This document shows, in pieces, positions 7,527-48,617 of a stretch of 64,000 bases of DNA. The stretch covers positions 1 through 64,000 of the IMG/VR virus record IMGVR_UViG_3300005326_000042, one strand, 5' to 3'. Both the position numbers and the translations under genes were made by a program. The notes under the pieces were generated by a model that was not told the DNA's origin, made no database searches, and worked only from the letters and a program-made list of their open reading frames with translations. The DNA comes from a virus (taxonomy: Duplodnaviria; Heunggongvirae; Uroviricota; Caudoviricetes). The first letter of the stretch is position 1. Each line of letters starts with the position of its first letter.

Positions 7527-7786
7527 CCCAACTTAATCTCCAACTCTTTCGCAACAATAAAATAGCCATTTTTAATTGTAAATTTGGAGTCCAAAATTTC
7601 TCTCGAACTTTGGAACATCCTAGCATCGTTTGCTCTGATTTCGTATCTAATAATAGAGTTAAACGGCACAAATGCCAAGTTATAACCCTCTGGTATATCG
7701 GGGATCAATTGACGAAGCTTTTCTGGAATTTTCTTGTGTTCCCAGGATTGGATGAAGATGTTACTCATCTCCTCCACCTCTCGCAA
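7523..7786 (-). CDS. hypothetical protein
   Basis: Track ORF. Confidence 0.4.
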   Translation of the reverse strand: MREVEEMSNIFIQSWEHKKIPEKLRQLIPDIPEGYNLAFVPFNSIIRYEIRANDARMFQSSREILDSKFTIKNGYFIVAKELEIKLG

Positions 7787-8169
7787 ACATCGTCTTCCTT
7801 CGTAGTCGGATTTATCAGTCCATAATCCATGTGATCATCTATGCTGCAAACAGATCTTTGGGAATTATACTCTTTGCAGTACTTGCAATGTCTTTTCTCA
7901 TATGCAGGACACCATCCGCTGTCTTTCATAAAATACGTATTCCCATCAGAACTATGAACTTCACAGCTTCCGTGTTCATAAATAAGTTTTGAATCCTCAT
8001 TAAAATTCTTACACCCGCAACATTTCTCGTTTTGAATATACCTTGCAATAGGTTGCGCAATATTTTTAAGGTAGAGGTGATCAATAGCTGGATAATATTG
8101 GTCTAGATTTAATTTCTCAAGAATTTTAAAAATTAGATCTAGATCGGAGTAGGGATATTCAAGCTTCAT
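7765..8169 (-). CDS. Cys-rich hypothetical protein
   Basis: Multiple CxxC pairs. Confidence 0.4.
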   Translation of the reverse strand: MKLEYPYSDLDLIFKILEKLNLDQYYPAIDHLYLKNIAQPIARYIQNEKCCGCKNFNEDSKLIYEHGSCEVHSSDGNTYFMKDSGWCPAYEKRHCKYCKEYNSQRSVCSIDDHMDYGLINPTTKEDDVCERWRR

Positions 8170-8404
8170 AAAAATTCACTACCTCAATATGTCCTATAAT
8201 CATTTCTTCTCCTCTATCGGGGTTATCTCTCATATCTAAGTATATCTTATAATTGCTCAGTTTTCGTCCATTCTTTCGTGCAAATTCGATTAACTTATCC
8301 CAAACCATATCCTCATCATTTCCCGCGCAGATTGGAGTATCATTTATCATACCGACGAAAATAGTAGAGGACGGGAAGGGTGGAAAGCCGTCAGATATTG
8401 CCAT
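8159..8404 (-). CDS. hypothetical protein
   Basis: Track ORF. Confidence 0.4.
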   Translation of the reverse strand: MAISDGFPPFPSSTIFVGMINDTPICAGNDEDMVWDKLIEFARKNGRKLSNYKIYLDMRDNPDRGEEMIIGHIEVVNFYEA

Positions 8405-8818
8405 TCACTCCTCTCCCTTCAATCTATATTCCCCAGAATCCCGCGCGAAACAGGTCTTACATGTTTTACACTGAAGTATATCTAAGGCTTCATCTGGTTC
8501 TGTCTTCCACAATAGTCTTATGGCAACAGTGTTTATATCATCACTACCACATTCTGGACATTTTACCAAAGGATCTCCTTGATCTACCCAATCACAGTAT
8601 TTAAACAACCTTCTAGCCATTCCAGAGTCATCCCACTGGCCTTCATGGAACGGGATTACTTTCCCATCCTCGCGAAGATAATAGTCCGCACTAAATATTC
8701 CTCCATCCAAGTCTTCAAAACATCTCAGACTATACCCGTCTACATTGTCGTATCCATTCTCTTGAAGAGCCTCAAAGAGAGTCTTGTCTAGATATCTTTT
8801 GTCTGCCATTTTAATCAC
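8405..8818 (-). CDS. hypothetical zinc-ribbon protein
   Basis: CPECG...CKTCKTC. Confidence 0.4.
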   Translation of the reverse strand: MIKMADKRYLDKTLFEALQENGYDNVDGYSLRCFEDLDGGIFSADYYLREDGKVIPFHEGQWDDSGMARRLFKYCDWVDQGDPLVKCPECGSDDINTVAIRLLWKTEPDEALDILQCKTCKTCFARDSGEYRLKGEE

Positions 8819-9072
8819 TCCTCATAAGACACATGCCAAACATATCCAGCATTAGTCTGGACCGTTCCTACATAGATATAATCCTTCTCAATTTCCCAAC
8901 CAGTTCCAAATACTAAAAACCTAGTTCTTATAAGTTCCTTAGCATCCAGATCTACTAGAATCCATACATAGAGTCCGTCATTCTGTATTCCAACGTGAAG
9001 GGCTTTAAAATTCGCGGGCAGGTCTAGATAATTTTCTCCAACAGATATCTTATATTTGTATATCGATTTCAT
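8815..9072 (-). CDS. hypothetical protein
   Basis: Track ORF. Confidence 0.4.
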   Translation of the reverse strand: MKSIYKYKISVGENYLDLPANFKALHVGIQNDGLYVWILVDLDAKELIRTRFLVFGTGWEIEKDYIYVGTVQTNAGYVWHVSYEE

Positions 9073-9115
9073 TGTTGTACCTCGATTAGTGCTTCATCTC
9101 TCATTCTATTTAACC

Positions 9116-9646
9116 TTAACCAACGGTTTTAATCCACTTATCTAACTCTTCCTTATGCCTCAAATACCCCATCAATTTTGTTTCGTTAGCCTCGCACCAA
9201 TCCTGGTTTTTGCCATAATTCATTCCAATTTCTTCACACAACATTTTATTAACCCAAAGAAACAACTTCAAAAATTCAAAATCTCCTGCGCGAAGAGATT
9301 TTAGTTTCCTACAGCAATAATCGTAACTTGTGTAGTTGTGTCGCAGAGAAGATATAACCAAGCTTTTAGTTGGATGTTTGACCCCGCGAACCATAGAAAT
9401 GAGTTGTTTATAATTTGGAGGAATTTCCCAAAATTCTACCTCGATTTCTAGAATTGTTTCCTCTTCTTTAGTACACTCTTTATAAAAGATTTCTTTTTCT
9501 TCCTGTTTCTTTCGATTTCTCTGAATTACTTCTAGTTTGCGATCCTGTTTTTGTTGGACTTTGAATTCTTTCCACTTTCTCTTAGCTTCTTTTTCTCTAA
9601 TCTTGTATGCTTGCCTTTTGGCTTTCTTAGCTGCTTTTGAAGTCAC
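9116..9646 (-). CDS. hypothetical protein with highly basic N-terminus
   Basis: Lys/Arg-rich first 60 aa; possible nucleic-acid binder. Confidence 0.4.
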   Translation of the reverse strand: MTSKAAKKAKRQAYKIREKEAKRKWKEFKVQQKQDRKLEVIQRNRKKQEEKEIFYKECTKEEETILEIEVEFWEIPPNYKQLISMVRGVKHPTKSLVISSLRHNYTSYDYCCRKLKSLRAGDFEFLKLFLWVNKMLCEEIGMNYGKNQDWCEANETKLMGYLRHKEELDKWIKTVG

Positions 9647-9725
9647 GATAAGTCCCTCCTAAACTTTAATAAAAGAGTATCGCAAACCCATTGGTTTGCT
9701 TAGGAGCACTTATCTGTCTTGGTAT

Positions 9726-10016
9726 TTAACTCTTTCTAAATGGGTGATAGTTTATGCGTCCTCCCCAATTAGATTTAATTCCCCTCAAATTGAAAAATTG
9801 ATATAACCCGAATGTTACAACCATAGGTAGATTACCGAGGTTATAGTAATCATAAAGTAAAAATCCATTACTAAACAGCCACAAAAAGAATCCGAGACCT
9901 CGTAGAGTTTGACTTGTTCCTGATGTCAAAAACGCGCCTGCAATTGCTAAGACCATTGTAACATAGAAGAGAGGTTTTGAGAGGATGTCTTGGAGGATAA
10001 AATTAAAGTCAATCAT
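9726..10016 (-). CDS. small membrane protein
   Basis: Three hydrophobic segments. Confidence 0.4.
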   Translation of the reverse strand: MIDFNFILQDILSKPLFYVTMVLAIAGAFLTSGTSQTLRGLGFFLWLFSNGFLLYDYYNLGNLPMVVTFGLYQFFNLRGIKSNWGGRINYHPFRKS

Positions 10017-10239
10017 CGTCTCCCTCGCGAACCTTTTTGTCTCCTGAAATATAAACTATATCACAATCTCCAGGCTTTTGTACCATTATAAGCGAATTAA
10101 ATTCGTCTAAGATTTCCTGTTTGGTTGCGTTTTCAAGAATTTTGATATTTGCCTCTGGAACGCCGAATGTGTTACTTAGGGTATCTGCAAATTCGGAAGT
10201 CTCACTTGGTCTTCCGACGAGAAGGGCTTTGAGGGTCAT
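10009..10239 (-). CDS. hypothetical protein
   Basis: Track ORF. Confidence 0.35.
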   Translation of the reverse strand: MTLKALLVGRPSETSEFADTLSNTFGVPEANIKILENATKQEILDEFNSLIMVQKPGDCDIVYISGDKKVREGDDD

Positions 10240-10694
10240 TTAGAATTCTCCTTTACCAATTTAATTCCATAATTCTGTCCTCTCTTGCAGAAAGTGAATA
10301 TACTATGAACTTGGCCCCAAGAAATATCTCTATTCTTGATTAGTTCATCTAAATCCTTAAGAAACATGGTATATTTTACTCCCTCGCTCAAATCTAAGAA
10401 TTCGGCATATGCAGCACTGCGTCCTCTACAAAATCCCTGAAATTCAAGAACGGCTTCAAATTCACAGTTCTCTACCCAAGTGGGAGGAACAGATCTGGTC
10501 TCATAGTTTCTTTCTATATCTTCATTTAAATACGATTTGTAATTCTCAGATCCATATTCTCCTATAGAATAGTGAACTCCTCGAATCAGCATTTCATTTG
10601 TAATTTTATGAAAACCGCGATAACTGTTTTCTGGATAGTGCATCTGGTTTTCATCGGGATCGAAGGGAATTAAGAGAACCCCTTTCTTGGACAT
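10236..10694 (-). CDS. hypothetical protein
   Basis: Track ORF. Confidence 0.4.
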   Translation of the reverse strand: MSKKGVLLIPFDPDENQMHYPENSYRGFHKITNEMLIRGVHYSIGEYGSENYKSYLNEDIERNYETRSVPPTWVENCEFEAVLEFQGFCRGRSAAYAEFLDLSEGVKYTMFLKDLDELIKNRDISWGQVHSIFTFCKRGQNYGIKLVKENSK

Positions 10695-10948
10695 TCTTCC
10701 TTCTCCTTAATTTCAATCCATTCGTTTATCCTTTCAAGAAGAATCTTGCTGGAATCAAAAATATCAACCAAAATTTGTCTTTCTCTTTCAGATCCTTCTA
10801 CAGGACATCCCCAGTTTCCAGATTCTAGGGCACACTGGATATCTAGAGCAAAATCCTGAAAAGCGTCTATTCTATGCCACAGATCGTAGAGTTCGTCTAT
10901 ATCTGTAAAATCCCTCTTGTAATGGTAATTAGTATCGGAAATCGGCAT
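10670..10948 (-). CDS. hypothetical protein
   Basis: Track ORF. Confidence 0.4.
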   Translation of the reverse strand: MPISDTNYHYKRDFTDIDELYDLWHRIDAFQDFALDIQCALESGNWGCPVEGSERERQILVDIFDSSKILLERINEWIEIKEKEECPRKGFS

Positions 10949-11017
10949 GTTAATTCCTCTGACGCTCAGTTGCTTCGCAACGTCGCTTATCCTCCGCGAT
11001 CTGATGATCGCTGCGGT

Positions 11018-11323
11018 TCACCACAATCCCCAACTCCTCAGACCTTCCCATCCTTTGAAGTGTTCGCAAATTATTTCTCTAAGATCGACATCCTCAAGTC
11101 CCATTTCGAGAAGATCAACTAAATTTTCTTTCTGCTTCTCATCCAGAGTGTCCATAAGACTTGAGATAAGTTTAATTACCATATCTTTTCGAACTTCGGA
11201 ATAACAATTCCAAGAACAGTAGTGTTCTAGGTAATTATATCCATCGCTATAATATAAGTATTCATCAGAGACTTCATATTCTTTACCGCAGCGTTTGCAG
11301 GTTTTCTTTGTGTAGAAGGGCAT
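11018..11323 (-). CDS. zinc-finger hypothetical protein
   Basis: CKRCG...C..NC. Confidence 0.4.
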   Translation of the reverse strand: MPFYTKKTCKRCGKEYEVSDEYLYYSDGYNYLEHYCSWNCYSEVRKDMVIKLISSLMDTLDEKQKENLVDLLEMGLEDVDLREIICEHFKGWEGLRSWGLW

Positions 11324-11329
11324 GATTAA

Positions 11330-11581
11330 TCACCCTAAAATCTTTTTCAAATCCTTCAGATTATTTCCATCAAACAAATCATTTGTTGTATAAAATTTAT
11401 CATCTACTTGTAGGATCGGAGCAGATATAGTAAATACTCCATTTGTATACAACTCAGTCATTGCATCTGGAGTTGCCATATTCCATTCTTCATAAGACTC
11501 ACACAAAAGTCTTATTCTTTCTTTTAACATCTTACACTTCGGACAATTTTCTGTAGAAAAGATTCTAATCACGCAAAACAC
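11330..11581 (-). CDS. NrdH-like glutaredoxin/thioredoxin-fold redoxin
   Basis: CPKC redox motif after a beta strand (IRIFSTENCPKC); 83 aa; immediately downstream of nrdG-nrdD. Confidence 0.55.
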   Translation of the reverse strand: MFCVIRIFSTENCPKCKMLKERIRLLCESYEEWNMATPDAMTELYTNGVFTISAPILQVDDKFYTTNDLFDGNNLKDLKKILG

Positions 11582-12155
11582 CTTCTTGTTTTTTCCAAGT
11601 CAGATTACAATTTTCAACAAAATGTTCTATTCTTTTTAAACTATCAGAGTCTGGATAGTCTTTAAATATAGTTGTTCTAACTTCTAATTCGATTCCTGTA
11701 AATATACAGCAAATTATACTATCCATTACATCATGCCAAGATGTTTTAGATCCTGTAAGATTAAAGTAATTATCTTCACCCCAAGTTTTTAGATCTACAA
11801 AAACCGCATCAAGGTAGCCGCCAGAAATTAGGTCTTTTAGAGCAAGACTATTGTATCCTGAAGTCTCGATTCCTACCTTTAGACCCAAAGAATGGGAGTA
11901 GTGGGAGAGTTCTTGGATTACTAGGGGTTGAAGCATTGGTTCCCCGCCGCCGAGAATTACGGCTGAAATTAATCTTGAACTCTCCCTTATCATAGATTTT
12001 ACTTCTTCTAAAGATATATAGTTTTCACCAGATCGAAGGTCTTTGTTGTGACAAAACCAACATCGGTAAGGACAGGTTCTAAACCCGATTAAACTGGCTG
12101 CGTGTCTTGGGTAATCGGAAAGGGTTAGAGGGAGGAAGGAGGCAAAGTTAAATAT
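11565..12155 (-). CDS. nrdG: anaerobic ribonucleotide reductase activating protein (radical SAM)
   Basis: CPYRCWFC radical-SAM cluster motif lies upstream of the only in-frame ATG (11993); frame is open to 12182 with no canonical start codon; candidate ATA at 12153 follows AAGGAGGAG; 5' end uncertain. Confidence 0.55.
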   Translation of the reverse strand: MFNFASFLPLTLSDYPRHAASLIGFRTCPYRCWFCHNKDLRSGENYISLEEVKSMIRESSRLISAVILGGGEPMLQPLVIQELSHYSHSLGLKVGIETSGYNSLALKDLISGGYLDAVFVDLKTWGEDNYFNLTGSKTSWHDVMDSIICCIFTGIELEVRTTIFKDYPDSDSLKRIEHFVENCNLTWKKQEGVLRD

Positions 12156-14478
12156 CGTATTTTCTCCTCCTTCTTCTCTCCTCTAGTTTTGCCTCCGACC
12201 ATGCGCTCAGACCGGACATGTAGCCAGTAATTCTCCCGAATCCTTCTACATGTTGTGAATTACAGAACTCACATTTTTCTTTTATGCCTCTTCCGGTTTT
12301 ACCACAATCAAGGCATACTGTAAATTCCATGCCAAAATCGAAATACTCAACAGGTGTAGACCAAGCTATACGGAGAATTAGATCTAGTAGGGCTTTAGCC
12401 TCTGGTTTCTTTTCGCCAATCCAAATGTGAGTTATGTTTCCTCCATCTGTGGCTGGGAAGAAAACACCCTCTAATTTAAGACGCTCAGATAAAGATACAT
12501 CAGCAGATACATCAAGGTGACATCCATTTGAGTAATAAACTGGAAGATCTCTTGTGTTCTTCAAGTTTACTAAAGCCTTCTCGACATCTCCTTTAATTAC
12601 CATCGATGCTCTATCCCTATATCTCTTGTTAAGTAGATCAGATACCGCAAACCTCTGAGCTGTACTTTCAGCGGGTGTTCGAGCGAGAGCTAACTTAAGC
12701 CCCGATTCCTTTGAAAGTTGCCTTATATACTCTCTAAGATCAAGAATTAGTTTTATTCCAAATCTCCAAGCTTCGGTAGACTCATGAAGTTGTTTACCAC
12801 AGTGAGTTTGTACTAACTCATTTAAACCCACAAATCCGATCACATAAGATTGAAAATCTAGATCAACAAGTGGAGGAGCGCGTTTTGTAGGATCATTTGG
12901 GTCTATTGGAGTCTGCATCGCAAAAGGAAGCCCGCCGTGAGCAACAACGTCATCGATTCTCTGCCTCTTGAGTTTAAAGACTTCTACGGCCTTTCTACAG
13001 AGGAACTTAAGATACTTTAATAAAACTTCATTATTTCCTTTTGCAACATACGCGGCTCTTGGAAGATTTAGAGTTATAACCTGAGCAGATCCGAGGCTAA
13101 AATGTTCCCCATTTTCAAAGTTCATCTTTTTGTCATATTTAGGATCATTTTCTTTCTCAGATCCCATGCTGTAGCTGCAACATTGTCTACATAATTGTAA
13201 ATTGTCCCAATCTTTTTCTGAAGATAAATGACTCTCTATATAAGGTGATCCATGCGTTGCTGCAAGTTCGGCTGCAAGTTCTAGGAGTTCTTTGTAAGAT
13301 GGAGCAATCTTTATCTTATAAGGTTCACTTGGTTCATCTCCCTCATCCCAATCTGATTCATGGATTTCATAAAGAGGATTGTCCAACGGTTGTTTCGTCT
13401 CTAAATCAAAAAACTCTCTCATCAAAGTTAATTCATATTTGGGCATACTGAACCCACGACCAAATATGTCTCCCTTAATAAGGATCTCTGTTACAGCTTT
13501 AAAAGCAAGACGAACTTCTCGCTCAAATTCACCATATGTTCTCAAAGGAGCTTGGATACCGTTCCAGATCTTACCTTTATATACTGCTGGTTTATCTCGC
13601 CAATTCTTCGGTACTCCGCAAGTTAATTGAATTGAACTAAAGATAGTTTGATCTGAACGAGAAGTCATCATCTGACACATTTCCCAAATATACATCTGAC
13701 AGTTTTGGTAAATCTTTTTATAAGATAACCCTTCGAAATAAGGAGCTAAGAACACCAAGAAGTTCTGATATCCCATACCGCCAGAAAAACAACTCTGTTG
13801 AGATCCTAATGTTTTAGCAAGATGAAGAATAGCCACTTCTGGATTCTGAGCAGCCCTGGCAACGCTTACATAATTTCCTGTGCCATCAGGATAAAGGCCA
13901 TAGTAAAGAGGATATCTTGCATCAGAATCTTGACAGAAATTTCTCTGAAACATATAGTTAAGGTCGTGAAGGTGGATTGACCCTTTTCTGTGAAGATTAG
14001 CTATATTTTGCGGCATAGATAAAAGATTAAACTCCTTATTCATCTTATCCGCTTTATGTTGATGCGCTGCATTGGAACCGTTTGATTGTGTATTCGCATT
14101 CTCTTTAGCCTCAAATCCATTTCCAAGGTCCGTAGAATGAACATCGAAAACACTCATTCCCACTTTAACAGAACAGTTATACCATTCTATTTTACCTGTC
14201 TCCATCAGAATAGAGTTTACGATTTCTCGGACGAAAGCTCCGGTTGTTCTCTCTAAATTTAATTTTCTAATTCTTTTTTCTGCTTTAATGGCAATCTTGT
14301 TTGCCTCATCTCTTGTACAAGGCGGAACACCAAAAAACTTTGTTGCGAGAGTTGTATCCTTCATCAATCTATTTATAATAGCTTCTCGATTCCAATCAAC
14401 TGAGTGTCCATCAGACGTGAATACCTTCGGCAAAGAAACATTATCAGTAACCATAGTTAAACCTCTAGAATTAGGCAA
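12148..14478 (-). CDS. nrdD: anaerobic (class III) ribonucleoside-triphosphate reductase
   Basis: 776 aa; C-terminal Zn ribbon CLDCG...CEFC followed by glycine-radical motif RITGY; gene order nrdD-nrdG-nrdH-like. Confidence 0.75.
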   Translation of the reverse strand: MPNSRGLTMVTDNVSLPKVFTSDGHSVDWNREAIINRLMKDTTLATKFFGVPPCTRDEANKIAIKAEKRIRKLNLERTTGAFVREIVNSILMETGKIEWYNCSVKVGMSVFDVHSTDLGNGFEAKENANTQSNGSNAAHQHKADKMNKEFNLLSMPQNIANLHRKGSIHLHDLNYMFQRNFCQDSDARYPLYYGLYPDGTGNYVSVARAAQNPEVAILHLAKTLGSQQSCFSGGMGYQNFLVFLAPYFEGLSYKKIYQNCQMYIWEMCQMMTSRSDQTIFSSIQLTCGVPKNWRDKPAVYKGKIWNGIQAPLRTYGEFEREVRLAFKAVTEILIKGDIFGRGFSMPKYELTLMREFFDLETKQPLDNPLYEIHESDWDEGDEPSEPYKIKIAPSYKELLELAAELAATHGSPYIESHLSSEKDWDNLQLCRQCCSYSMGSEKENDPKYDKKMNFENGEHFSLGSAQVITLNLPRAAYVAKGNNEVLLKYLKFLCRKAVEVFKLKRQRIDDVVAHGGLPFAMQTPIDPNDPTKRAPPLVDLDFQSYVIGFVGLNELVQTHCGKQLHESTEAWRFGIKLILDLREYIRQLSKESGLKLALARTPAESTAQRFAVSDLLNKRYRDRASMVIKGDVEKALVNLKNTRDLPVYYSNGCHLDVSADVSLSERLKLEGVFFPATDGGNITHIWIGEKKPEAKALLDLILRIAWSTPVEYFDFGMEFTVCLDCGKTGRGIKEKCEFCNSQHVEGFGRITGYMSGLSAWSEAKLEERRRRRKYDI

Positions 14479-14673
14479 AACGATTAAATATCTCCTAAAC
14501 TATTTGAACCTTACGCTCGAATCAAAAATATTCAGGTGTCTTCCAAGAATAAAGATCCTCATAAGCCTTTTTCATCGACTCAATAAATAATAATTGATTT
14601 TCCAGCTCTGGAGGTTTCCAAGGTATATCCCATCTAATGTGCTTTAAACCTTCAAAAACTTCTGGATGATCGA

Positions 14674-15033
14674 TCATACTCTTCCTTCCTTTTTAAGTTG
14701 ATTATAACCAAAAATCATCTCATCTATAGTTTTAGTAATTCTGTTTTCTAAACCTTCCCTCATTCTAAACTGCATTATCATTCTAGAAACCTTACAATCT
14801 AGTTTGTCCAATTCTTTATTTGTGCATTCGCAACAAAGACTAATAACTCCGACAAAATCGCCTTCATTGTCACGAACAAAATAGTTATTTCCTGTGTGTT
14901 CTGTACAAACAGTCTTCTTACAATTTGCACAAACTTGTATTGGATTCTCATGTTCCCAAACATTGATCATATTTCCTTTGTATTCTACTTTTTCTTCCTT
15001 ATGGGAAAGGCCACATATCGAGCAACTCTTCAT
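14674..15033 (-). CDS. zinc-ribbon protein, paralog A
   Basis: CSICG..H...CANCKK..C.EH...C.EC; paralogous to next gene. Confidence 0.5.
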   Translation of the reverse strand: MKSCSICGLSHKEEKVEYKGNMINVWEHENPIQVCANCKKTVCTEHTGNNYFVRDNEGDFVGVISLCCECTNKELDKLDCKVSRMIMQFRMREGLENRITKTIDEMIFGYNQLKKEGRV

Positions 15034-15458
15034 TTTACTCTTCCCTCTTCCTTCAACTTCAGATATCCAAACTCCGTGTCGGTTGCAAGCCTGAAAATTT
15101 TATTCTCAAGAAGAATTCTATTACTAATTTGATCCATCATAAGTTGGACAAGTTTATCTAGCTCGTCAGGATGTTTACCCGCACATTCCCAACACAAATA
15201 TATGTTTCCTATCTCCTCATCGTTTATATCCCAAAGACACATTTCTCTAGCTGTATGTTCTTCGCAAATATCTTTCTTACAATTCGCACATTTATTAATT
15301 TCGTTATATACTTCTCTAACCCATCCATTTTCTGTTTCTACTTCAGTTTCGTGGGGTTTACCACAGATATCACAGCATACGGTCCTTATCTTCTTAGATT
15401 CTGAAACTTTAGTCATCTTATAGCTAGGCACATTAACTTCAATTTCTTTAACTACCAT
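15030..15458 (-). CDS. zinc-ribbon protein, paralog B
   Basis: Same Cys spacing and shared C-terminal ...GY..LK.EGRV; tandem duplicate. Confidence 0.5.
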   Translation of the reverse strand: MVVKEIEVNVPSYKMTKVSESKKIRTVCCDICGKPHETEVETENGWVREVYNEINKCANCKKDICEEHTAREMCLWDINDEEIGNIYLCWECAGKHPDELDKLVQLMMDQISNRILLENKIFRLATDTEFGYLKLKEEGRVK

Positions 15459-15612
15459 TTCCTAATCACTCCACATCTTCTACAATAACTCACATCAACA
15501 TCCAGCTCGGCAAAATCATGATAAATCGCCGCGCAAATTGTATATCTCTTTAAGAAATTAATAAACTTTCGTTTATAAAAATTTAGCTCTAGTTTGAGAG
15601 AAAGAGGAAGTT

Positions 15613-15897
15613 TCAATCTTCCTCATCCCCTTCATCGGACTCTTCTTCGTCCTGACTTGGTTCCTTAGTGCCTTTATGTAACCAAGTTGGATTCGGATTA
15701 CCCTTTCGCGTTGATTTTCTTCCGTTTAAATTGTACGGATGAAATGGAAAAAGAGGACATGCTTCAATTTCGCAAGATTCTCTCCCATCTATATAATCCG
15801 CACAGCAAGAAGCGCACATGGCCTTTATGGACTGACTTTTTGTAAGCTCCTCGCCGTTTCTATATTTTTCCCATTCTCTTGAGCCTTTACCAGACAT
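15613..15897 (-). CDS. Cys-rich protein with acidic C-terminal tail
   Basis: Start moved to internal ATG (MSGKGSREW) abutting upstream gene stop; track ORF extends to 15999. Confidence 0.4.
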   Translation of the reverse strand: MSGKGSREWEKYRNGEELTKSQSIKAMCASCCADYIDGRESCEIEACPLFPFHPYNLNGRKSTRKGNPNPTWLHKGTKEPSQDEEESDEGDEED

Positions 15898-15899
15898 AA

Positions 15900-16142
15900 T
15901 TAATCCTCCAATAAAATATAACCAATTAATGTTGCAATAATAGCTATGAACCATCCAATTACAAAATTCACGTGGCTCTGGAAATCCTGTAAGATACACA
16001 TTCCCGCTTCTTTCAGAAACGGAGAAGCTAGAATAAAGGACACAACAAGAAAACCTCCTGTAAGTCCTATAGCTATTATTCCCCCAAGAATCAAAAATAT
16101 AAATCCTAAAGCCTGTCTTCCTTCTCCCATCTTAATATCCAC
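15900..16142 (-). CDS. small membrane protein (2 TM)
   Basis: Two long hydrophobic helices. Confidence 0.45.
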   Translation of the reverse strand: MDIKMGEGRQALGFIFLILGGIIAIGLTGGFLVVSFILASPFLKEAGMCILQDFQSHVNFVIGWFIAIIATLIGYILLED

Positions 16143-16680: not shown

Positions 16681-17646
16681 TTAGCTTTCGTTAGGATTAT
16701 AGATACAATCGGTTGCTTTCTTGTCGGGCCTAAGATTTTTTATCCTCGGATGTCTGAAGCGGCCCGTTTTAGGTATTCTTTCCTGTGCGGTAATTTCTAT
16801 GACTGTACCGATGTATTTCTCTTTGTTGTTGGACATGTCTTCTCTAAGGGCGTCACTCATCCCTGAGCAGTACCCGAATGATATTAATTTACCACTAAAA
16901 TATTGTCCAAACTCAACGGCCCCCACCCATCCGAGTTCTGCGAACTTCGAAATTGACTCAGTGCCATCGACTTTGGTAGTCATTTCTTTGGCATCTTTAA
17001 AATTTGTAACCACTACGTCCCATGTGGCAGATCGCTTCGCCTTGACCCATCCAGTTTTCTTGCCATAAGGTGCTGTGGTGTCTTTTAAAATTATTCCTTC
17101 GCCCCCGCTCTCAAGAACTTCTTCGTATAAAGATTTCTTGTCGCCTTTTACGATTTCTGTTATTGAAACATGATTTAAATCTAAATCTTCAAAGTACCCT
17201 TCGAGGACAGCCCTCCTATAAGACCAAGGCTTATCTCGGATATCCTGACCCTTATTCATCAAAACGTCAAATATTACGTAGTTCAACCATCCATTTTGAC
17301 GTTGAAACTCAATTGCGCGGGATGGGAGTGCGCCAGTTATCTTAGTTACATCCATGCTGTTGGAACCGAATACAAGCTCCCCATCGAAGATTGTTCCAGA
17401 AAAATCCCCATCTAGGTTATTATCTACGAAAATATTTTTCAAATGTGGGAAATTTTCTGTTTTTTCTGTGAATAAATTTGTCTTCTTAGATATGTGCCTG
17501 CTTGTGAACCTGTTTCCTCCAATACCGCAATGCATGAGTGCTCTGCTTCCATCGTATTTGATTTCACCAACATATTGCGAAGAATTCCACATACTTTCTT
17601 TCAATTTGCCGCGTGCCTGTGCGGGTTCGATTTGTAAGATTTCCAT
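16681..17646 (-). CDS. ATP-dependent DNA ligase (T7-like, compact)
   Basis: Motif I EIKYDGSR, motif IV EGIILKD, motif V WVKAKR; 321 aa. Confidence 0.7.
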   Translation of the reverse strand: MEILQIEPAQARGKLKESMWNSSQYVGEIKYDGSRALMHCGIGGNRFTSRHISKKTNLFTEKTENFPHLKNIFVDNNLDGDFSGTIFDGELVFGSNSMDVTKITGALPSRAIEFQRQNGWLNYVIFDVLMNKGQDIRDKPWSYRRAVLEGYFEDLDLNHVSITEIVKGDKKSLYEEVLESGGEGIILKDTTAPYGKKTGWVKAKRSATWDVVVTNFKDAKEMTTKVDGTESISKFAELGWVGAVEFGQYFSGKLISFGYCSGMSDALREDMSNNKEKYIGTVIEITAQERIPKTGRFRHPRIKNLRPDKKATDCIYNPNES

Positions 17647-35379: not shown

Positions 35380-35620
35380 AAAGATTTCTTCCAACTCCCC
35401 CTTCAACTCCCCTTTTTTAAGCGCCCCGCGCATATTGAAAATTGTGAAAGGGGGAGTTGGGGAGGTAATTTTCAGTATTTTCCTATATAGTTTTTTTAAA
35501 AAATAAAATTAATACCTTCTAGATATCCCCAACTCCCCCTTCGATAGCAGGCGGCAGGGGGAGTAAAATGATCTCCCCTTTCTGCGGGCATTGTGTTACG
35601 ATTTTTAAAAATCGTAATAA
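35380..35620. promoter_or_regulatory. putative replication origin: repeats + inverted repeat + AT-rich spacer + palindrome
   Basis: CCCCAACTCCCCCTT at 35391 and 35527 (direct) and inverted at 35448-35462; AT-rich 35484-35515; palindrome ACGATTTTTAAAAATCGT 35599-35616. Confidence 0.45.
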
Positions 35621-43759: not shown

Positions 43760-44224
43760 ATGACTTATTTTGGTTTATTGAAAGGAAAGACCGTCCTCGG
43801 AGTCGTAAAAGAATGGCTCATGGACGATGACGGTCATGGGCAGGTGGATGTGGTGTCCACAGCAGCGCCAGCCACCCTACCTTTGCCCACAGGCGCGGCT
43901 ACGGAATCGACTTTGGCGGCGATGAACGGGAAGCTCGGTGCTCTCAGCAGAACTCCCCGCTCGGGTCAGCAAACGGTAGCCGCAGCGGGAACAGAAGTCG
44001 CTCTAGGTGCATCCCAAGTCTATAGGGAAGTTACAGTGATTGCCAACAGCGACAACACCGGAAACATCTATATTGGTAACGACGGGACTGATCATGTATC
44101 AAGTACCACGGGCGGCAAGCTTCCAGCGGGCGGATTTGCCACTTTCCACAATGTAGATATCTCTAAGATATTTGTAGATGTTGCGGTCTCCGGCGAAGGT
44201 GTCTCCTGGTTTGGTGAGATTTGA
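43760..44224 (+). CDS. fibre-associated structural protein, paralog A
   Basis: GQQTVAAAGTEVALG...VTVIANSDNTGNIYIGNDGTD...GEGVSWFGEI; paralogous to 44473..44865. Confidence 0.5.
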   Translation: MTYFGLLKGKTVLGVVKEWLMDDDGHGQVDVVSTAAPATLPLPTGAATESTLAAMNGKLGALSRTPRSGQQTVAAAGTEVALGASQVYREVTVIANSDNTGNIYIGNDGTDHVSSTTGGKLPAGGFATFHNVDISKIFVDVAVSGEGVSWFGEI

Positions 44225-44472
44225 TGTTCGGCCAGCATCACTGCTCAAAATGTGGCCTAAAATATAACAATGCGTCAGTAGACGGGCGAGATTACACTTA
44301 CACCTGCAAGAACTGCTGCCAAGTTGAAACCTTCCACATGGATGGTACTAGCACCACATTCGACTGCCCGATATGCGCGAAGACTGCATTGAATGCAAAT
44401 TTCGCGCCCAATAACGTGAACAGGAAGATGGATTTCTCGGATAAATATAACTCAATGTATCGGGTGATTTGA
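44221..44472 (+). CDS. zinc-finger small protein between fibre paralogs
   Basis: CSKCG...CKNCC...CPICAKT. Confidence 0.4.
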   Translation: MMFGQHHCSKCGLKYNNASVDGRDYTYTCKNCCQVETFHMDGTSTTFDCPICAKTALNANFAPNNVNRKMDFSDKYNSMYRVI

Positions 44473-44865
44473 ATGGCAGATAGCAATTTGAAGATTCTGA
44501 ATGCGGATGAAGATCCGAAATGGCAGAAGGTGAAGGGGGCGCAAACGGAGGGAGATCCCGGATCGCCGTACGTGTGCCTGGATGGGAGCAATACCCCGAA
44601 GAGTGGACAGAAAGCAGTGGCATCAGCAGGTACTGCGGAAGCCCTGGGAACGACCCAAGTATTCAAGCGGGTTACAGTGGTTGCCAATGCCGATAATACA
44701 GGAGATGTGTATGTTGGCAATGACGGTGCTGACGATGTCAGCAGCATCACGGGAATAATCTTACCCCCGGGCGGCTGGTTCGACTGGTTCTTTGTGGATA
44801 TCGCTGATCTCTATGTAGATGCTGAAGTATCTACTGAAGGCGTGTCTTATGGGGGAGAAATATGA
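44473..44865 (+). CDS. fibre-associated structural protein, paralog B
   Basis: GQKAVASAGTAEALG...VTVVANADNTGDVYVGNDGAD...TEGVSYGGEI. Confidence 0.5.
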   Translation: MADSNLKILNADEDPKWQKVKGAQTEGDPGSPYVCLDGSNTPKSGQKAVASAGTAEALGTTQVFKRVTVVANADNTGDVYVGNDGADDVSSITGIILPPGGWFDWFFVDIADLYVDAEVSTEGVSYGGEI

Positions 44866-47039
44866 GCGCAGGACAATTTATTCAGGGAGTGCTACGCGGT
44901 GCATATCGCATATATAATGTGCACGATTTTGGCGCGGTGGGGGATGGCGTCCACGATGACACAGCAGCATTCCAAGCATGCATAACAGCCGCCGCTGGAA
45001 AGGGGCCTGCCATCGTTCCCAAGCCACTTGTTCGATATCTAGTATCGTCTCAGGCCCCGATGGCGTATGGATCATGGAATTATTGCATCGCTGTTCCCAG
45101 CCACACGCAGATAATTGGTCTCGATAGGCCCGAAATTCAGCTCAATGCCGCAGATACAGATGTTTGCCGAACTATATTTACAAATTCGGATTGGGTAAAC
45201 GGGAATACTGATATCGAGATCGTGGGACTGTCTATAGATGGAAATTACAGGAACAGACAGGCGGGAACAGCTAATAATCTGGTACTTATTCACATGGGAG
45301 TATCAGACGCTGGCGCTACCGTTGGATGCACTGACATTCGAATAGAGTCAAATAAGTTGTACGATGGAATTCTCGGTATCGGACTATATAACTACATCAA
45401 AGGTGCTGCCAAAAACAGCAACTGCAAGGTCAATTCGAATGTCATCGACTCGATGCAAAATTTCTGCATAGAATTCGACTCCACCGATAACTCTGAGATG
45501 AGTGGCAACCAATCATCGAACAGTTTGAATTACGATGTCGGCGGGGCGTATAATCTAATATTTTGGTCAAACAACAACACCGTTGATGCAAACCAATTCA
45601 AGTCTTCGAATATCAACAACACGGGCATCTGGATCAAGCACGGCAGTTCGGGAAACATCATCACTAACAACAACATCATTGCTCCGATGGGGTGCATCTT
45701 CTTCGAGACCGAGCCGGTTGAAACCGCTTCGATCACTGAAAACAACACTGTATCGGAAAATTACTTCGAGGAAACCGGCGCTTCGTCCAAGTTCTTGATC
45801 TACAATGCAGCTGGATCGACATTCAGAAACAATACAATCCGTGACAACAAATTCGTAGGTTGGCCTCTGTGGATCAGGGCAACGCAAACCGCTGCGAGAG
45901 ATTGCACAATCGATGGTCTTTATATTCGTAACAATGAATTTATTGTGCCCGACAATGTTAAGAACATGTGCATAGGATCAGCCGCCACAGAGGGCGGCGC
46001 CGGCACGTCCTGGGACAATATATTCGTCGAGGGGAACACATTCAGGAGGGGGTATATTGCTCTAGTTGGAAAAGTCAATCGCCTCTTCATCCGACGCAAC
46101 AAATTCATAGCAGTGGCCGGAACTCAGATCAATATCGATACTACAACATCGATTACAGAAGCTTACATTGATGATAATACAGCGATTGGCGGAAATAACT
46201 TCGTCTACACAGATGGAACGCTCCTGGGGCTGAAAACTCTCAGGCGCAATACGATTATTGCAAGCGGTGGGACGGCGATAACAGTCGGATCTGCAAATGC
46301 AATAGACATTTCTGACAATGATATAGATGTACCGACGACAGGATACGCATTCAATATATTAGCCGGATCACATACATTTAAGCGGAATAAAATTCACGAT
46401 GGGCAATACGGAATTACCGCCCCAGTGGGCACCGTTCAAACAATAAAGGATTGTGAGTTTTCGGGGTTGACTGGAGCCACACCTCGCCTAAAAGGCGCGG
46501 CAACGTATATTACCGATGTTTCGACAGAGCATTTCCAAGGTGTATTAGCGGCATCGGCTACTGCGATTAGATCAAATGAAGATCTGAGCGCGGCAACACC
46601 CCTCACCTTTACACTGGATGCTCAACCCGATGTTCCGAGGCGGCTTGTATGGGCCTTTGATGCGCATGCTCAGATAACAGCATTCTCCATTACTTTTACT
46701 GGAGTGAATGCGAAGGACGTTGCCGTTACACAAACGATCACAGAAGCTTCTGGCTGGTCAGGTGTCACGAATGAAGCATTTGCCACTATCACATCTATCA
46801 TCATGACCGCCAGAACAGGAACTGGTGCAGGTGATACGATTGATATCGGTGTCAATGATGTGATTGGCTTGGCAACCTCGCTTGATGTCGCGGCGGATGT
46901 GTTTAAGGTGAAAAAGAACAGTGCGAATTATCCCGCAGCAAGTTATACGGTGGAAGATGTTTATGACACGATCGACTTGAGCACGGGCGGGGCGATAACA
47001 GGCGGGGATGATTTCACGATTTGGTACAAGGCACTATAG
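44862..47039 (+). CDS. tailspike/receptor-binding protein with pectate-lyase-like right-handed beta-helix
   Basis: YNVHDFGAVGDGVHDDTAAFQACI N-terminal motif of the pectate-lyase superfamily; many N..I/N.F beta-helix rungs; 725 aa. Confidence 0.6.
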   Translation: MSAGQFIQGVLRGAYRIYNVHDFGAVGDGVHDDTAAFQACITAAAGKGPAIVPKPLVRYLVSSQAPMAYGSWNYCIAVPSHTQIIGLDRPEIQLNAADTDVCRTIFTNSDWVNGNTDIEIVGLSIDGNYRNRQAGTANNLVLIHMGVSDAGATVGCTDIRIESNKLYDGILGIGLYNYIKGAAKNSNCKVNSNVIDSMQNFCIEFDSTDNSEMSGNQSSNSLNYDVGGAYNLIFWSNNNTVDANQFKSSNINNTGIWIKHGSSGNIITNNNIIAPMGCIFFETEPVETASITENNTVSENYFEETGASSKFLIYNAAGSTFRNNTIRDNKFVGWPLWIRATQTAARDCTIDGLYIRNNEFIVPDNVKNMCIGSAATEGGAGTSWDNIFVEGNTFRRGYIALVGKVNRLFIRRNKFIAVAGTQINIDTTTSITEAYIDDNTAIGGNNFVYTDGTLLGLKTLRRNTIIASGGTAITVGSANAIDISDNDIDVPTTGYAFNILAGSHTFKRNKIHDGQYGITAPVGTVQTIKDCEFSGLTGATPRLKGAATYITDVSTEHFQGVLAASATAIRSNEDLSAATPLTFTLDAQPDVPRRLVWAFDAHAQITAFSITFTGVNAKDVAVTQTITEASGWSGVTNEAFATITSIIMTARTGTGAGDTIDIGVNDVIGLATSLDVAADVFKVKKNSANYPAASYTVEDVYDTIDLSTGGAITGGDDFTIWYKAL

Positions 47040-47080
47040 GGCAAAAGGAGAACCCCAGTTCTCCTAAGTCCCTCATTTCA

Positions 47081-47485
47081 TCATTTTTGGCTGAGAACTT
47101 CCGTATTAGTCCTATGTGATATCATTAGGCTCTTCAGTGCAGCGTTCTGCGACTCTATGATATCCAAGGCCCGCTTTGACCAATCTGCTACTGATTCTCC
47201 TGGCTTCCCCGCACATTCTTTGAGACGGTCGTAATCCGCTGCATATACCCAAATCATTTTCTTTTCATCCGACTTCTTTTTCGCGGATAAAAACATGCAC
47301 TTATCGAAGGATACTTGCCCTGGATACAATTTAAAATCCCTTAAATTGATCTCCTCTATATCCGGATAGAAGGTGCAATTGATAAAACGCACTTCGGCGC
47401 TCTCGTTTATAGCATCCGCGATTATTGTTTCGCACTCCGATAGGTTCAGAACCTCATCAAATCGTCTTATTATTTTTGGCTCCAT
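47081..47485 (-). CDS. hypothetical protein
   Basis: Track ORF. Confidence 0.4.
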   Translation of the reverse strand: MEPKIIRRFDEVLNLSECETIIADAINESAEVRFINCTFYPDIEEINLRDFKLYPGQVSFDKCMFLSAKKKSDEKKMIWVYAADYDRLKECAGKPGESVADWSKRALDIIESQNAALKSLMISHRTNTEVLSQK

Positions 47486-47665
47486 GTAGAAAACTTATAA
47501 TCTTTATAATATTTATAACCATCGTACAACATAAGTCCAAAAGTACATGACTATTCAGCAAAGTCGATCATTCCAATCATTATAGGAATACATAGATCCT
47601 AGAGCGCGCCCCTATGCGGCAGATAGCGAAAATAGGAGTATAAGAAAAGGAGAATAAAAAATAGA

Positions 47666-47935
47666 CTAAAGTCCTAGATGCCGAAGAGTCGAGGATTTCC
47701 TTCGCTTCGGTCTCTCCTTCTGAATCTGATACGCAGGCCGCTCGACCTCTTTCGGCACAGCGTCCACGATGTCGGACTTGCCACAGTTCGGGCACGGTCT
47801 GCCCTCTGGTTCAACCTCGTGGATCTTGTCGGGCTTTAGGGTGGGCATTCTAATGCCTCTGTGGAGGTGGGTCCACTGGAGGAAGTGATGCTCGCAGTCG
47901 AGGCAGCGTTTCTCCTGGACGCCGACGATCTTCAT
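47666..47935 (-). CDS. zinc-ribbon protein (GC-rich operon)
   Basis: Start at internal ATG (MKIVGV) overlapping upstream stop (ATGA); CLDCEHH...CPNCG. Confidence 0.4.
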   Translation of the reverse strand: MKIVGVQEKRCLDCEHHFLQWTHLHRGIRMPTLKPDKIHEVEPEGRPCPNCGKSDIVDAVPKEVERPAYQIQKERPKRRKSSTLRHLGL

Positions 47936-48075
47936 GGCTTCCTCTTGCGAAGATCTATCTCCGCTTGAAGGGCCTTGCGACATACGGCGGCCACGTTGAT
48001 CTCCTCCAGATCCTCTAGGGATTTTTGCATCTCTTCGGAGATCTGGAAGGTTTTTGGGATGGGGTATTTCGCCAT
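47932..48075 (-). CDS. ribbon-helix-helix-like small protein (GC-rich operon)
   Basis: Internal ATG (MAKYPIPKTFQISEEMQKSLEDLEE...) coupled to neighbours. Confidence 0.35.
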   Translation of the reverse strand: MAKYPIPKTFQISEEMQKSLEDLEEINVAAVCRKALQAEIDLRKRKP

Positions 48076-48617
48076 CACTGCCTGCCCCCAAATTTCTCTA
48101 GGATGGGCGTCAGACAAATGTCTAGCGCCATTCCTCGGAAATGGCATTCGTGCATTGTTACGAGCGACGCGACCGCACGCTCCTCCTCAATTTCTGGAGT
48201 GGTGACCTCCCCGAGGTCGATCAATGCCTGGACAACCCAGTCAGGCATGGTCTCTATCGGGGTCGCTGGCTCCTGTGGCCACCATGGGCACCCCTGATTT
48301 GGCGGGGTAACTCGGAATCGCTGTATCTTCCCATCTTGGAAAGATACGAACTGGTAATATTGATCGTTTATCCCATACCAGGTGGCAATTACGCAACCTG
48401 GATGAGCTTTCAGCCAGTTATCCCAATCGTCCCATCCCACTCGAAGGGATGTCTCCCCGGCTATTCTCTCATGATCCGTACTCGCTGTTATCCAGCGAGA
48501 GTCAGTCCCATGATGGGACTGAAACGTTTTGCTCTCACCCGGTTGGGGCTCTTTCCGCCCCTTCATACTATCTCTCATATTTGGCATAGCATCTACTAGT
48601 ATCTCATAGTATATCAA
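48075..48617 (-). CDS. hypothetical protein (GC-rich operon)
   Basis: Start uncertain (possibly internal MPNMRD). Confidence 0.35.
   Translation of the reverse strand: MIYYEILVDAMPNMRDSMKGRKEPQPGESKTFQSHHGTDSRWITASTDHERIAGETSLRVGWDDWDNWLKAHPGCVIATWYGINDQYYQFVSFQDGKIQRFRVTPPNQGCPWWPQEPATPIETMPDWVVQALIDLGEVTTPEIEEERAVASLVTMHECHFRGMALDICLTPILEKFGGRQ

Follow-up and report, generated by a model that had tools for sequence, protein, structure and literature searches.

The AUU start codon of Escherichia coli infC is conserved and serves as the sensor of the IF3 autoregulatory loop. In infC, as in pcnB (AUU), a near-cognate codon is the sole possible start and lies at the proper distance from a Shine-Dalgarno (SD) sequence; from near-cognate starts in general, an output of a few per cent or less of that of AUG is expected, all 64 codons having been measured (bioRxiv 10.1101/063800). 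Strict termination-reinitiation coupling at overlapping genes, often dependent on an intragenic SD, has been described in Haloferax volcanii and E. coli, and in E. coli local structures block de novo initiation at coupled genes (PMC6728339). Such structures, which occlude the ribosome-binding site (RBS), are typical of coupled pairs (PMC6728339, PMC12548453), of which phage f1 VII/IX and MS2 coat-lysis are reviewed examples (PMC12548453). Here we describe the junction of nrdD and nrdG, the genes for a class III (anaerobic) ribonucleotide reductase (RNR) and its radical S-adenosylmethionine (SAM) activating enzyme, in a stretch of 64,000 nucleotides (nt) of viral DNA (IMG/VR record IMGVR_UViG_3300005326_000042, positions 1 to 64,000; hereafter the window). 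The junction belongs to known kinds, near-cognate starts and structure-gated coupling, and its setting, the class III RNR activase of a probable methanogen virus, is unusual.

Like infC and pcnB, nrdG of the window has near-cognate codons as its only possible starts, at the proper SD distance. It differs from infC in that the codon is ACG or AUA, is not conserved, is probably read by archaeal machinery and has no evident feedback loop. With the coupled pairs it shares a stop/start overlap (-8 or -11 nt), an SD within the upstream gene and a stable structure over the downstream RBS, of the kind that is opened by the upstream ribosome. The described cases, however, restart at AUG, GUG or UUG, whereas the restart codon of the window would be near-cognate and its coupling is a prediction. 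In gene content and protein families the locus matches the class III RNR operons of phages and methanogens, which hold nrdD and nrdG together with an NrdH/glutaredoxin-like redoxin; compared with the operons of related viruses, it has the order nrdD-nrdG-grx and an nrdG lacking its own start codon. With somewhat more than an even chance in our judgement, NrdG would be made at a low level from ACG 12158-56 or AUA 12155-53, coupled to the termination of nrdD.

An intact nrdG frame without a canonical start codon

Directly downstream of nrdD and overlapping it, a minus-strand frame that follows TAG 12185-12183 stays open from 12182 to its stop TAG 11567-11565, in +1 relative to nrdD. It translates as RREEGGENTIFNFASFLPLTLSDYPRHAASLIGFRTCPYRCWFCHNKDL...SM(11993)IRES. 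An earlier note on this DNA, made from the letters alone, had stated that the CxxxCxxC motif of nrdG lies upstream of the only in-frame ATG (11993), and that the frame holds no ATG, GTG or TTG between the upstream stop and that codon. Translation bears this out: the cluster cysteines at 12074-72, 12062-60 and 12053-51 are each encoded upstream of ATG 11993-91, and none of the 63 codons between TAG 12185-12183 and ATG 11993 is ATG, GTG or TTG. A start-free run of this length is not rare in this genome, as these three codons make up 3.7% of in-frame codons (P about 0.09). The anomaly is thus not the length of the run, but the non-canonical identity of the single codon where NrdG must begin.

Three comparisons, with the TIGR02495 profile, with nine viral homologues and with E. 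coli pyruvate formate-lyase activating enzyme (PFL-AE), place the N-terminus at 12158-12150. Since the TIGR02495 (NrdG2) alignment begins at profile position 2 on residue 13 of the open frame, the real N-terminus lies at about these positions; MAFFT aligns ACG 12158-56 with Met1 of the nine viral homologues, and the window NrdG is colinear with PFL-AE, residue 25 on residue 25. Within the open frame, homology to the family sets in at about codon 9-13. The protein passes the TIGR02495 cutoff narrowly (132.0 bits against 131.15, profile positions 2-187 of 193) and that of PF04055 Radical_SAM clearly (64.8 bits against 29.5, E=1.4e-17). All 47 columns that are invariant in the viral clade are kept, including C29, C33, C36 and GGE. 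By these comparisons, nrdG is an intact and probably functional activase gene without a canonical initiation codon.

Automatic callers choose ATG 11993, the sole canonical start, and the truncated 142-amino-acid (aa) call (P0001) is present in public data on four contigs from JGI, ENA and Logan. It is highly improbable that this cluster-less product is the real one, with another role, and that the upstream frame is a remnant. The 25 nt that precede ATG 11993 hold no SD, the product would lack the CxxxCxxC that defines radical-SAM activases, and the 63 codons ahead of this ATG contain no stop and show homology to the family N-terminus. SGENYISLEEVK and the DLR-containing peptides derive from residues upstream of M56, and would thus tell the full-length protein from the truncated one. 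Two other ways of starting the frame were considered and rejected. Reading through TAG 12185-83 by stop recoding reaches TGA 12209-07 with no in-frame ATG in between, and AGG 12182-80, with GGAGG 9 nt upstream, is a very poor near-cognate codon whose use would add nine residues absent from all homologues. Eight other open reading frames (ORFs) of the window have long start-free leaders; all begin with an ordinary SD and ATG, and their leaders are non-coding. Hence, nrdG is the sole case of a non-canonical start in the window, and there is no genome-wide habit.

Automatic calling reduces the window nrdG to 142 aa without the cluster and mis-starts several relatives, and therefore class III RNR can be wrongly scored as incomplete in viral and methanogen genomes. 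Public calls also truncate nrdG in the viral loci L002 (3848-4432, 143 aa) and L008 (5554-6132, 121 aa). Unlike the case of the window, these are ordinary caller errors, in which a GTG overlapping the glutaredoxin stop was missed. In another NrdG homologue (L007 17-712, JGI 3300044579), the C-terminal part of an intein (PF14890 positions 121-155, E=7e-6, ...ANGMISHN|CHNKEL) directly precedes the third cysteine of CxxxCxxC, and the contig ends inside the intein.

Candidate start codons and gene order at the nrdD-nrdG junction

NrdD starts at ATG 14454 (alternative TTG 14478), contains the glycyl-radical motif RITGY and ends at TAA 12150-12148. Its viral relatives are 72-76% identical; two NrdD homologues (P0017 and P0089) carry inteins. 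The 3' end of nrdD reads ...AGA AGA AGG AGG AGA AAA TAC GAT ATT TAA, and the C-terminus ...RITGYMSGLSAWSEAKLEERRRRRKYDI is colinear with ...KKEERKRRLKYEI of the relatives (KYDI*, RRRRRKYDI* in the window; KYEI*, RKRRLKYEI* in the relatives). Within this end lies the SD AAGGAGGAG, whose duplex with the 16S 3' tail GAUCACCUCCU amounts to -10.7 kcal/mol. As the earlier note had it, the SD is followed 8 nt later by an in-frame ATA, and nrdG is offset by one from nrdD; all its coordinates, for the frame, the motif, the SD, ATA 12155-12153 and the nrdD stop 12150-12148, proved correct.

Among the options raised in that note (non-canonical initiation, frameshift-mediated coupling to nrdD, or an indel error), non-canonical initiation is the most likely, yet ATA does not stand as the only candidate. 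In alignments the preceding codon, ACG, falls on Met1 of the relatives. AGGAGG stands 7 nt before it, the modal distance both in this genome and at the junction of the relatives. The position of ACG, -28 from the first cluster cysteine, is also that of the start of most cellular NrdG. ATA follows GGAG by 8 nt and GGAGG by 10 nt, in frame and within the range of 5-12 nt at which the motifs AGGAG, GAGGT or GGTGAT precede genes of the window. It is also closer to the nrdD stop than ACG, and restart after termination favours the nearest start (PMC12548453). In E. coli, ACG belongs to a class with 0.1-1% of AUG activity and its start with Met has been confirmed by mass spectrometry; AUA falls into the AUH class (H standing for A, C or U) with 1-2% of AUG, so that together the two initiate with Met at about 0.1-3% of AUG (bioRxiv 10.1101/063800). 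In Haloferax volcanii, near-cognate codons make up about 30% of the putative alternative initiation sites (PMC7261190). On sequence grounds ACG may be an equal or better candidate than ATA; the two are possible sites of one hypothesis, inseparable in silico. The expected N-terminal peptide is MIFNFASFLPLTLSDYPR for an ACG start and MFNFASFLPLTLSDYPR for an ATA start.

A virus-encoded tRNA, for example an initiator reading AUA or ACG, was ruled out, as ARAGORN finds no tRNA gene in the window. C-to-U editing of ACG, as in plant organelles, was considered, and there is no evidence for it. A literature search on non-canonical starts of nrdG returned nothing specific.

How the ACG came about can be read from related viruses. 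DNA was recovered for 14 loci of the viral clade (L002, L003, L005, L006, L008-L015, L017, L018). In 14/14 of them nrdG starts with ATG or GTG at the codon aligned with ACG 12158-56; L008, for instance, has GTG TTA GTT AAC TTT GGG where the window has ACG ATA TTT AAC TTT GCC. The gene order is nrdD-grx-nrdG in ten loci (L002, L003, L005, L008, L009, L010, L011, L015, L017, L018), as opposed to nrdD-nrdG-grx in the window, where the GTG start of the glutaredoxin gene overlaps the nrdG stop (GTGATTAG). In three of the relatives (L002, L003, L008), the glutaredoxin ATG lies within the final nrdD codons as AGGAGG-7nt-ATG, with an 11-nt overlap. The relatives' junction reads ...AGGAGGTTAAAGT ATG AAA TAT AA (nrdD ...AAG TAT GAA ATA TAA) and that of the window ...AGGAGGAGAAAAT ACG ATA TTT AA (nrdD ...AAA TAC GAT ATT TAA), in an identical register. 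The equivalent AGGAGG/AGGAG stands at the same place in the relatives, where it serves the grx ATG. Judging from these alignments, nrdG and the glutaredoxin gene have exchanged places in the window's lineage. Through this swap, nrdG came to abut nrdD and would have taken over the SD and the start site of the glutaredoxin gene. ATG and ACG differ by one transition, which is synonymous in nrdD (TAT to TAC, Tyr).

The earlier note had held that its anomaly would fall if homologues had an ATG at the equivalent position and the window carried a point change. The homologues do have canonical codons there and the window does differ by such a change; this shows the origin of the present state, not an absence of translation. 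Neither an IMG/VR protein-pattern scan nor blastn (3.2 kb against 50,697 phage records) returned a close relative of the junction. Scanning IMG/VR and the JGI metagenomes for the DNA pattern of the junction, with any base allowed at 12153 and a variable A-run, gave no match either. Since no close relative turned up in these collections and all 14 viral relatives are canonical, the non-canonical state could be very young.

It is important to consider the accuracy of the sequence itself. L001, the Logan assembly of SRR5248219, matches window positions 7565-15993 exactly, with 100% identity over 8,429 nt. An indel error, the third option of the earlier note, is ruled out: throughout the 11-nt overlap both genes remain colinear with their respective homologues, although the loss or gain of a single base there would disrupt one frame or the other, and the independent assembly is identical. 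A substitution error in the consensus, or a minor variant, would mean that ATG (T at 12157 or G at 12153) is the dominant form and the gene an ordinary one. The virus is known from one sample only (SRR5248219 and its JGI/ENA assemblies), searches for identical NrdG, NrdD and glutaredoxin proteins led only to this one contig family of that sample, and the relaxed pattern scans yielded no second copy for comparison, all of which leaves room for such an error. We nevertheless regard it as quite unlikely, because the separate Logan assembly agrees at every position, the same 142-aa call appears on the four public contigs, no 196- or 197-aa NrdG variant exists among 5.8 billion protein clusters, and substitution errors are rare in an assembled Illumina consensus.

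Table 1 Features of the nrdD-nrdG junction and of the remainder of the window
Feature	Position	Strand	Basis and remarks
nrdD, anaerobic (class III) ribonucleoside-triphosphate reductase, 768 aa	12148-14454	-	Pfam NRDD E=1.5e-119; TIGR02487 415 bits
nrdG, class III RNR activating enzyme (radical SAM), 197 codons if from ACG	11565-12158	-	TIGR02495, PF04055
Shine-Dalgarno AAGGAGGAG	12164-12172	-	inside nrdD 3' end, codons AGA AGG AGG AGA; read directly
ACG, candidate near-cognate nrdG start	12156-12158	-	-28 from first cluster Cys; 11-nt overlap with nrdD
ATA, alternative candidate nrdG start	12153-12155	-	-27 from first cluster Cys; 8-nt overlap with nrdD
CPYRCWFC, CxxxCxxC [4Fe-4S]/SAM cluster motif	12051-12074	-	translation; invariant C29, C33, C36
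Internal ATG, start chosen by automatic callers	11991-11993	-	142-aa product without cluster; not a plausible functional start
Hairpin	12126-12185	-	5' arm 12185-12162, 3' arm 12146-12126, 15-nt loop 12161-12147; RNA folding
Glutaredoxin/NrdH-like gene, 80 aa, CPKC	11330-11572	-	weak TIGR02196/TIGR02194 matches; gene call in L001
ATP-dependent DNA ligase	16681-17646		encoded in window
NUMOD3 protein, 444 aa	17650-18984	-	six NUMOD3 repeats, E=1.7e-68
Second radical-SAM gene with SPASM domain, 368 aa	56403-57509	-	unrelated to nrdG
D5-type primase-helicase with archaeo-eukaryotic primase large-subunit domain			encoded in window
Prim-pol			encoded in window
SNF2 helicase			encoded in window
Thymidylate synthase			encoded in window
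Tail-fibre-like beta-helix protein			encoded in window

A codon-favoured hairpin over the Shine-Dalgarno sequence

Folding of 12215-12100 and then of 12190-12118 revealed a hairpin in which the purine-rich nrdD 3' end CUAGAGGAGAGAAGAAGGAGGAGAA, the whole SD included, forms the 5' arm (Table 1). The CU-rich 3' arm UUUGCCUCCUUCCUCCCUCUA (UUU G CCUCCUUCCUCCCUCUA) corresponds to about nrdG codons 5-11, and the loop AAUACGAUAUUUAAC holds ACG, AUA and the nrdD stop UAA. Within it, GAAGGAGG is perfectly paired with CCUCCUUC, a mimic of the 16S anti-SD. Neither the positional homology of ACG with the relatives' start nor this SD-burying structure had been part of the earlier note. The minimum free energy is -24.2 kcal/mol (12118-12190), with z = -3.63 against dinucleotide shuffles, 1/200 of which was as stable, and the hairpin belongs to the most stable 0.9% of 73-nt windows across the 64 kb. 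The matching junctions of five relatives are unstructured (z -1.25 to +0.5). Synonymous resampling of nrdG codons 5-14 (FASFLPLTLS) with the codon usage of the window gave -14.8 +/- 3.4 kcal/mol on average, and 12/3000 samples reached the observed stability. GCC, UCC, CUC and ACC, the codons actually used, are minority codons in this genome. The hairpin is thus favoured by codon choice. If the first nrdG codons were shaped to pair with the SD, selection would have acted on the junction after the rearrangement. A search of Rfam with the junction gave sub-threshold mir-483 matches only, on both strands, which are due to the hairpin itself.

The protein sequence also shows a departure here. At residues 6-7 the window has NFASF in place of the N(F/Y)GG found in 9/9 aligned viral homologues, and the GG is invariant in Methanoregulaceae, too. 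The replacement of GG by AS (GCC UCC) is what pairing with GGAGG of the SD would require, and relaxed constraint would also allow it. The departures of the N-terminus from the clade could reflect either hairpin selection or relaxed constraint.

A rival reading is that the gene has lost its start altogether. A recent ATG to ACG change would then have produced a null or near-null allele with a still undecayed ORF, while the NrdG of the host activates the viral NrdD. The canonical codon of all 14 relatives, the single transition that is silent in the overlapping nrdD codon, and the N-terminal region that departs from clade-conserved residues are all in keeping with such a loss, as is the fact that the likely hosts, methanogens, encode their own NrdG. 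We consider it unlikely all the same. The 197-codon frame is free of stops and frameshifts and keeps every clade-invariant residue, codons shaped to pair with the SD (12/3000) are hard to square with a dead gene, and nrdG starts consisting of AUH only are stably kept in Methanoregulaceae (see below), which makes weak starts compatible with function.

The hairpin also surrounds the sequence AUU UAA C (12153-12147), at which a programmed +1 frameshift could in principle join the two frames into an NrdD-NrdG fusion (...KYDI-NFASFLPL...) of about 965 aa with the junction peptide YDINFASFLPLTLSDYPR. This would account for an nrdG that lies in +1 of nrdD and has no canonical start of its own, and for an unusual hairpin around the site. 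The locus indeed resembles prfB (CUU UGA C) in having a 0-frame stop followed by C, an NUU P-site codon, an SD-like element upstream and an ORF downstream in +1. It differs from prfB, however, in its spacing: 10-12 nt separate the SD from the P-site codon (a spacer of 10 nt from the end of GGAGGAG at 12164 to AUU 12153-51) instead of 3 nt. By our own reasoning, tRNA-Ile may re-pair poorly from AUU to UUU, with 2/3 pairs kept and a U:U mismatch in the first position. The hairpin is not a downstream stimulator either, because its arms cannot both pair while a ribosome occupies the stop. There is also no conservation. The relatives translate NrdD and NrdG as separate proteins from their own starts, often with the glutaredoxin gene in between, a fused radical-SAM domain occurs in 0/120 of the best NrdD homologues, and the end of NrdD and the beginning of NrdG are both family-typical. 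Frameshifting is therefore very unlikely, and of the frameshift-mediated coupling proposed in the earlier note only the coupling itself is likely to hold.

For low-level initiation of nrdG on ACG or AUA, the following course of events can be envisaged. On free mRNA the SD would be paired with nrdG codons 5-11 and de novo initiation of nrdG would be blocked. A ribosome translating nrdD would unwind the 5' arm, melt the stem and terminate in the loop at UAA, which follows the candidate starts by 3-6 nt. The freed SD, 7-10 nt upstream of ACG/AUA, could then hold the terminated ribosome or its small subunit, which would reinitiate a few nucleotides back on the near-cognate codon (termination-reinitiation), with initiator Met-tRNA starting NrdG on ACG or AUA at a low level. 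Alternatively, a new small subunit might bind before the stem re-forms (RNA unfolding); the RNA-unfolding and scanning models of coupling have been reviewed (PMC12548453). In either case NrdG would amount to a small fixed fraction of the NrdD output. For an activase that acts catalytically, a low and fixed level relative to the reductase makes sense. Each component of this mechanism has a precedent; we infer their combination with a non-canonical restart codon, as well as the use of ACG or AUA, the coupling to nrdD and the archaeal host, from sequence.

Several points weigh against this course of events. Near-cognate initiation is inefficient, and a buried SD on top of it could leave almost no product. 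The non-canonical start is not conserved, given the ATG or GTG of all 14 viral relatives, whose NrdG proteins are 41-51% identical to that of the window. The hairpin, though in the top 1% of 73-nt windows, is not unique in the window. TIGR02495 is exceeded by less than 1 bit, and the N-terminal 25 residues differ from the viral clade at several clade-conserved positions, GG to AS among them. The archaeal host is deduced from NrdD similarity, GGTGAT-type SDs and gene content, and the support as a whole is sequence from one uncultured genome, on one contig from one sample. If the mechanism is true, three throttles would be stacked on one archaeal-virus gene, namely a near-cognate start, SD sequestration and obligatory restart, and together they would set a low activase-to-reductase ratio.

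Apparently weak nrdG starts in Methanoregulaceae and the probable host

A cellular NrdG clade, identified as that of Methanoregulaceae (Methanoregula, Methanolinea) and 34-36% identical to the window NrdG, offers a precedent. We scanned GTDB species representatives in a start-codon census that covered 79 Methanoregulaceae species genomes (loci L090-L169 from GTDB genomes, with L046-L088 from metagenome contigs; for example L154 1501-1509, L147, L149 and L164). At the family start position (-28), the codon is ATC, ATT or ATA in 53/79 species, 3-5 nt after GGTGAT, and ATG, GTG or TTG in 24/79. Twelve of the 79 species combine AUH at -28 with a canonical codon at -26, whereas 41 have AUH at -28 and CTG, GTA, GTC, ATA, CTC or ATT at -26; 22 of those 41 also lack a canonical start throughout the open frame upstream. 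The region between GGTGAT and the AUH codon contains one-nucleotide indels and in-frame stops, which show it to be non-coding. Database N-termini of these proteins are inconsistent: the first cysteine stands at offsets from 8 to 70, and there are at least eight different N-termini. The NCBI entry P0186 'MEINFGG' (L154 ATC GAG ATT AAT) does start at ATC.

Judging by these sequences, an archaeal gene seems to have conserved AUH initiation, which suggests the hypothesis of selection for low activase synthesis. We found no paper on AUH initiation of Methanoregulaceae nrdG. The two cases are alike in that an NrdG2-type activase lacks ATG, GTG or TTG at the family start position. They differ in that the Methanoregulaceae nrdG is cellular, stands alone behind a promoter-like region of its own and does not overlap nrdD, and in the codon, AUH at -28 as opposed to ACG at -28 and AUA at -27 in the virus. 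The Methanoregulaceae starts are thus an independent case, distant from the virus. Since a weak nrdG start has been stably kept in one methanogen family, the same reading becomes more credible for the virus. Deliberately weak initiation of nrdG, keeping the activase scarce and in fixed proportion to the reductase, may have evolved repeatedly in methanogens and their viruses, by AUH in Methanoregulaceae and by ACG/AUA with SD sequestration here, though we regard this as rather doubtful. Non-AUG initiation in archaea is poorly documented, and the junction and the Methanoregulaceae AUH starts provide concrete sequences for its study.

The window has the look of a virus genome, tightly packed and with a guanine-plus-cytosine (GC) content of 37-38%. 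The nearest cellular NrdD homologues are 47-48% identical, and nearly all of them come from Methanothrix and other Methanosarcinia. This similarity, the GGTGAT-type SDs and the gene content, which includes the replication proteins of Table 1, point to a probable archaeal virus of a Methanothrix-like host.

Some further observations concern mobile elements and base composition. The NUMOD3 ORF is homing-endonuclease-like and lies directly upstream of the ATP-dependent DNA ligase gene, and a neighbouring virus (L008 6431-8215) carries an intein in its DNA methylase. A GC-rich island spans 44001-48000 of the window (0.47 as compared with ~0.38). The strongest 73-nt folds of the window (-30 to -35 kcal/mol) are found on both strands at 35388-35463, directly after the D5 primase-helicase gene, and around 48.2-48.6 kb (48200-48560).

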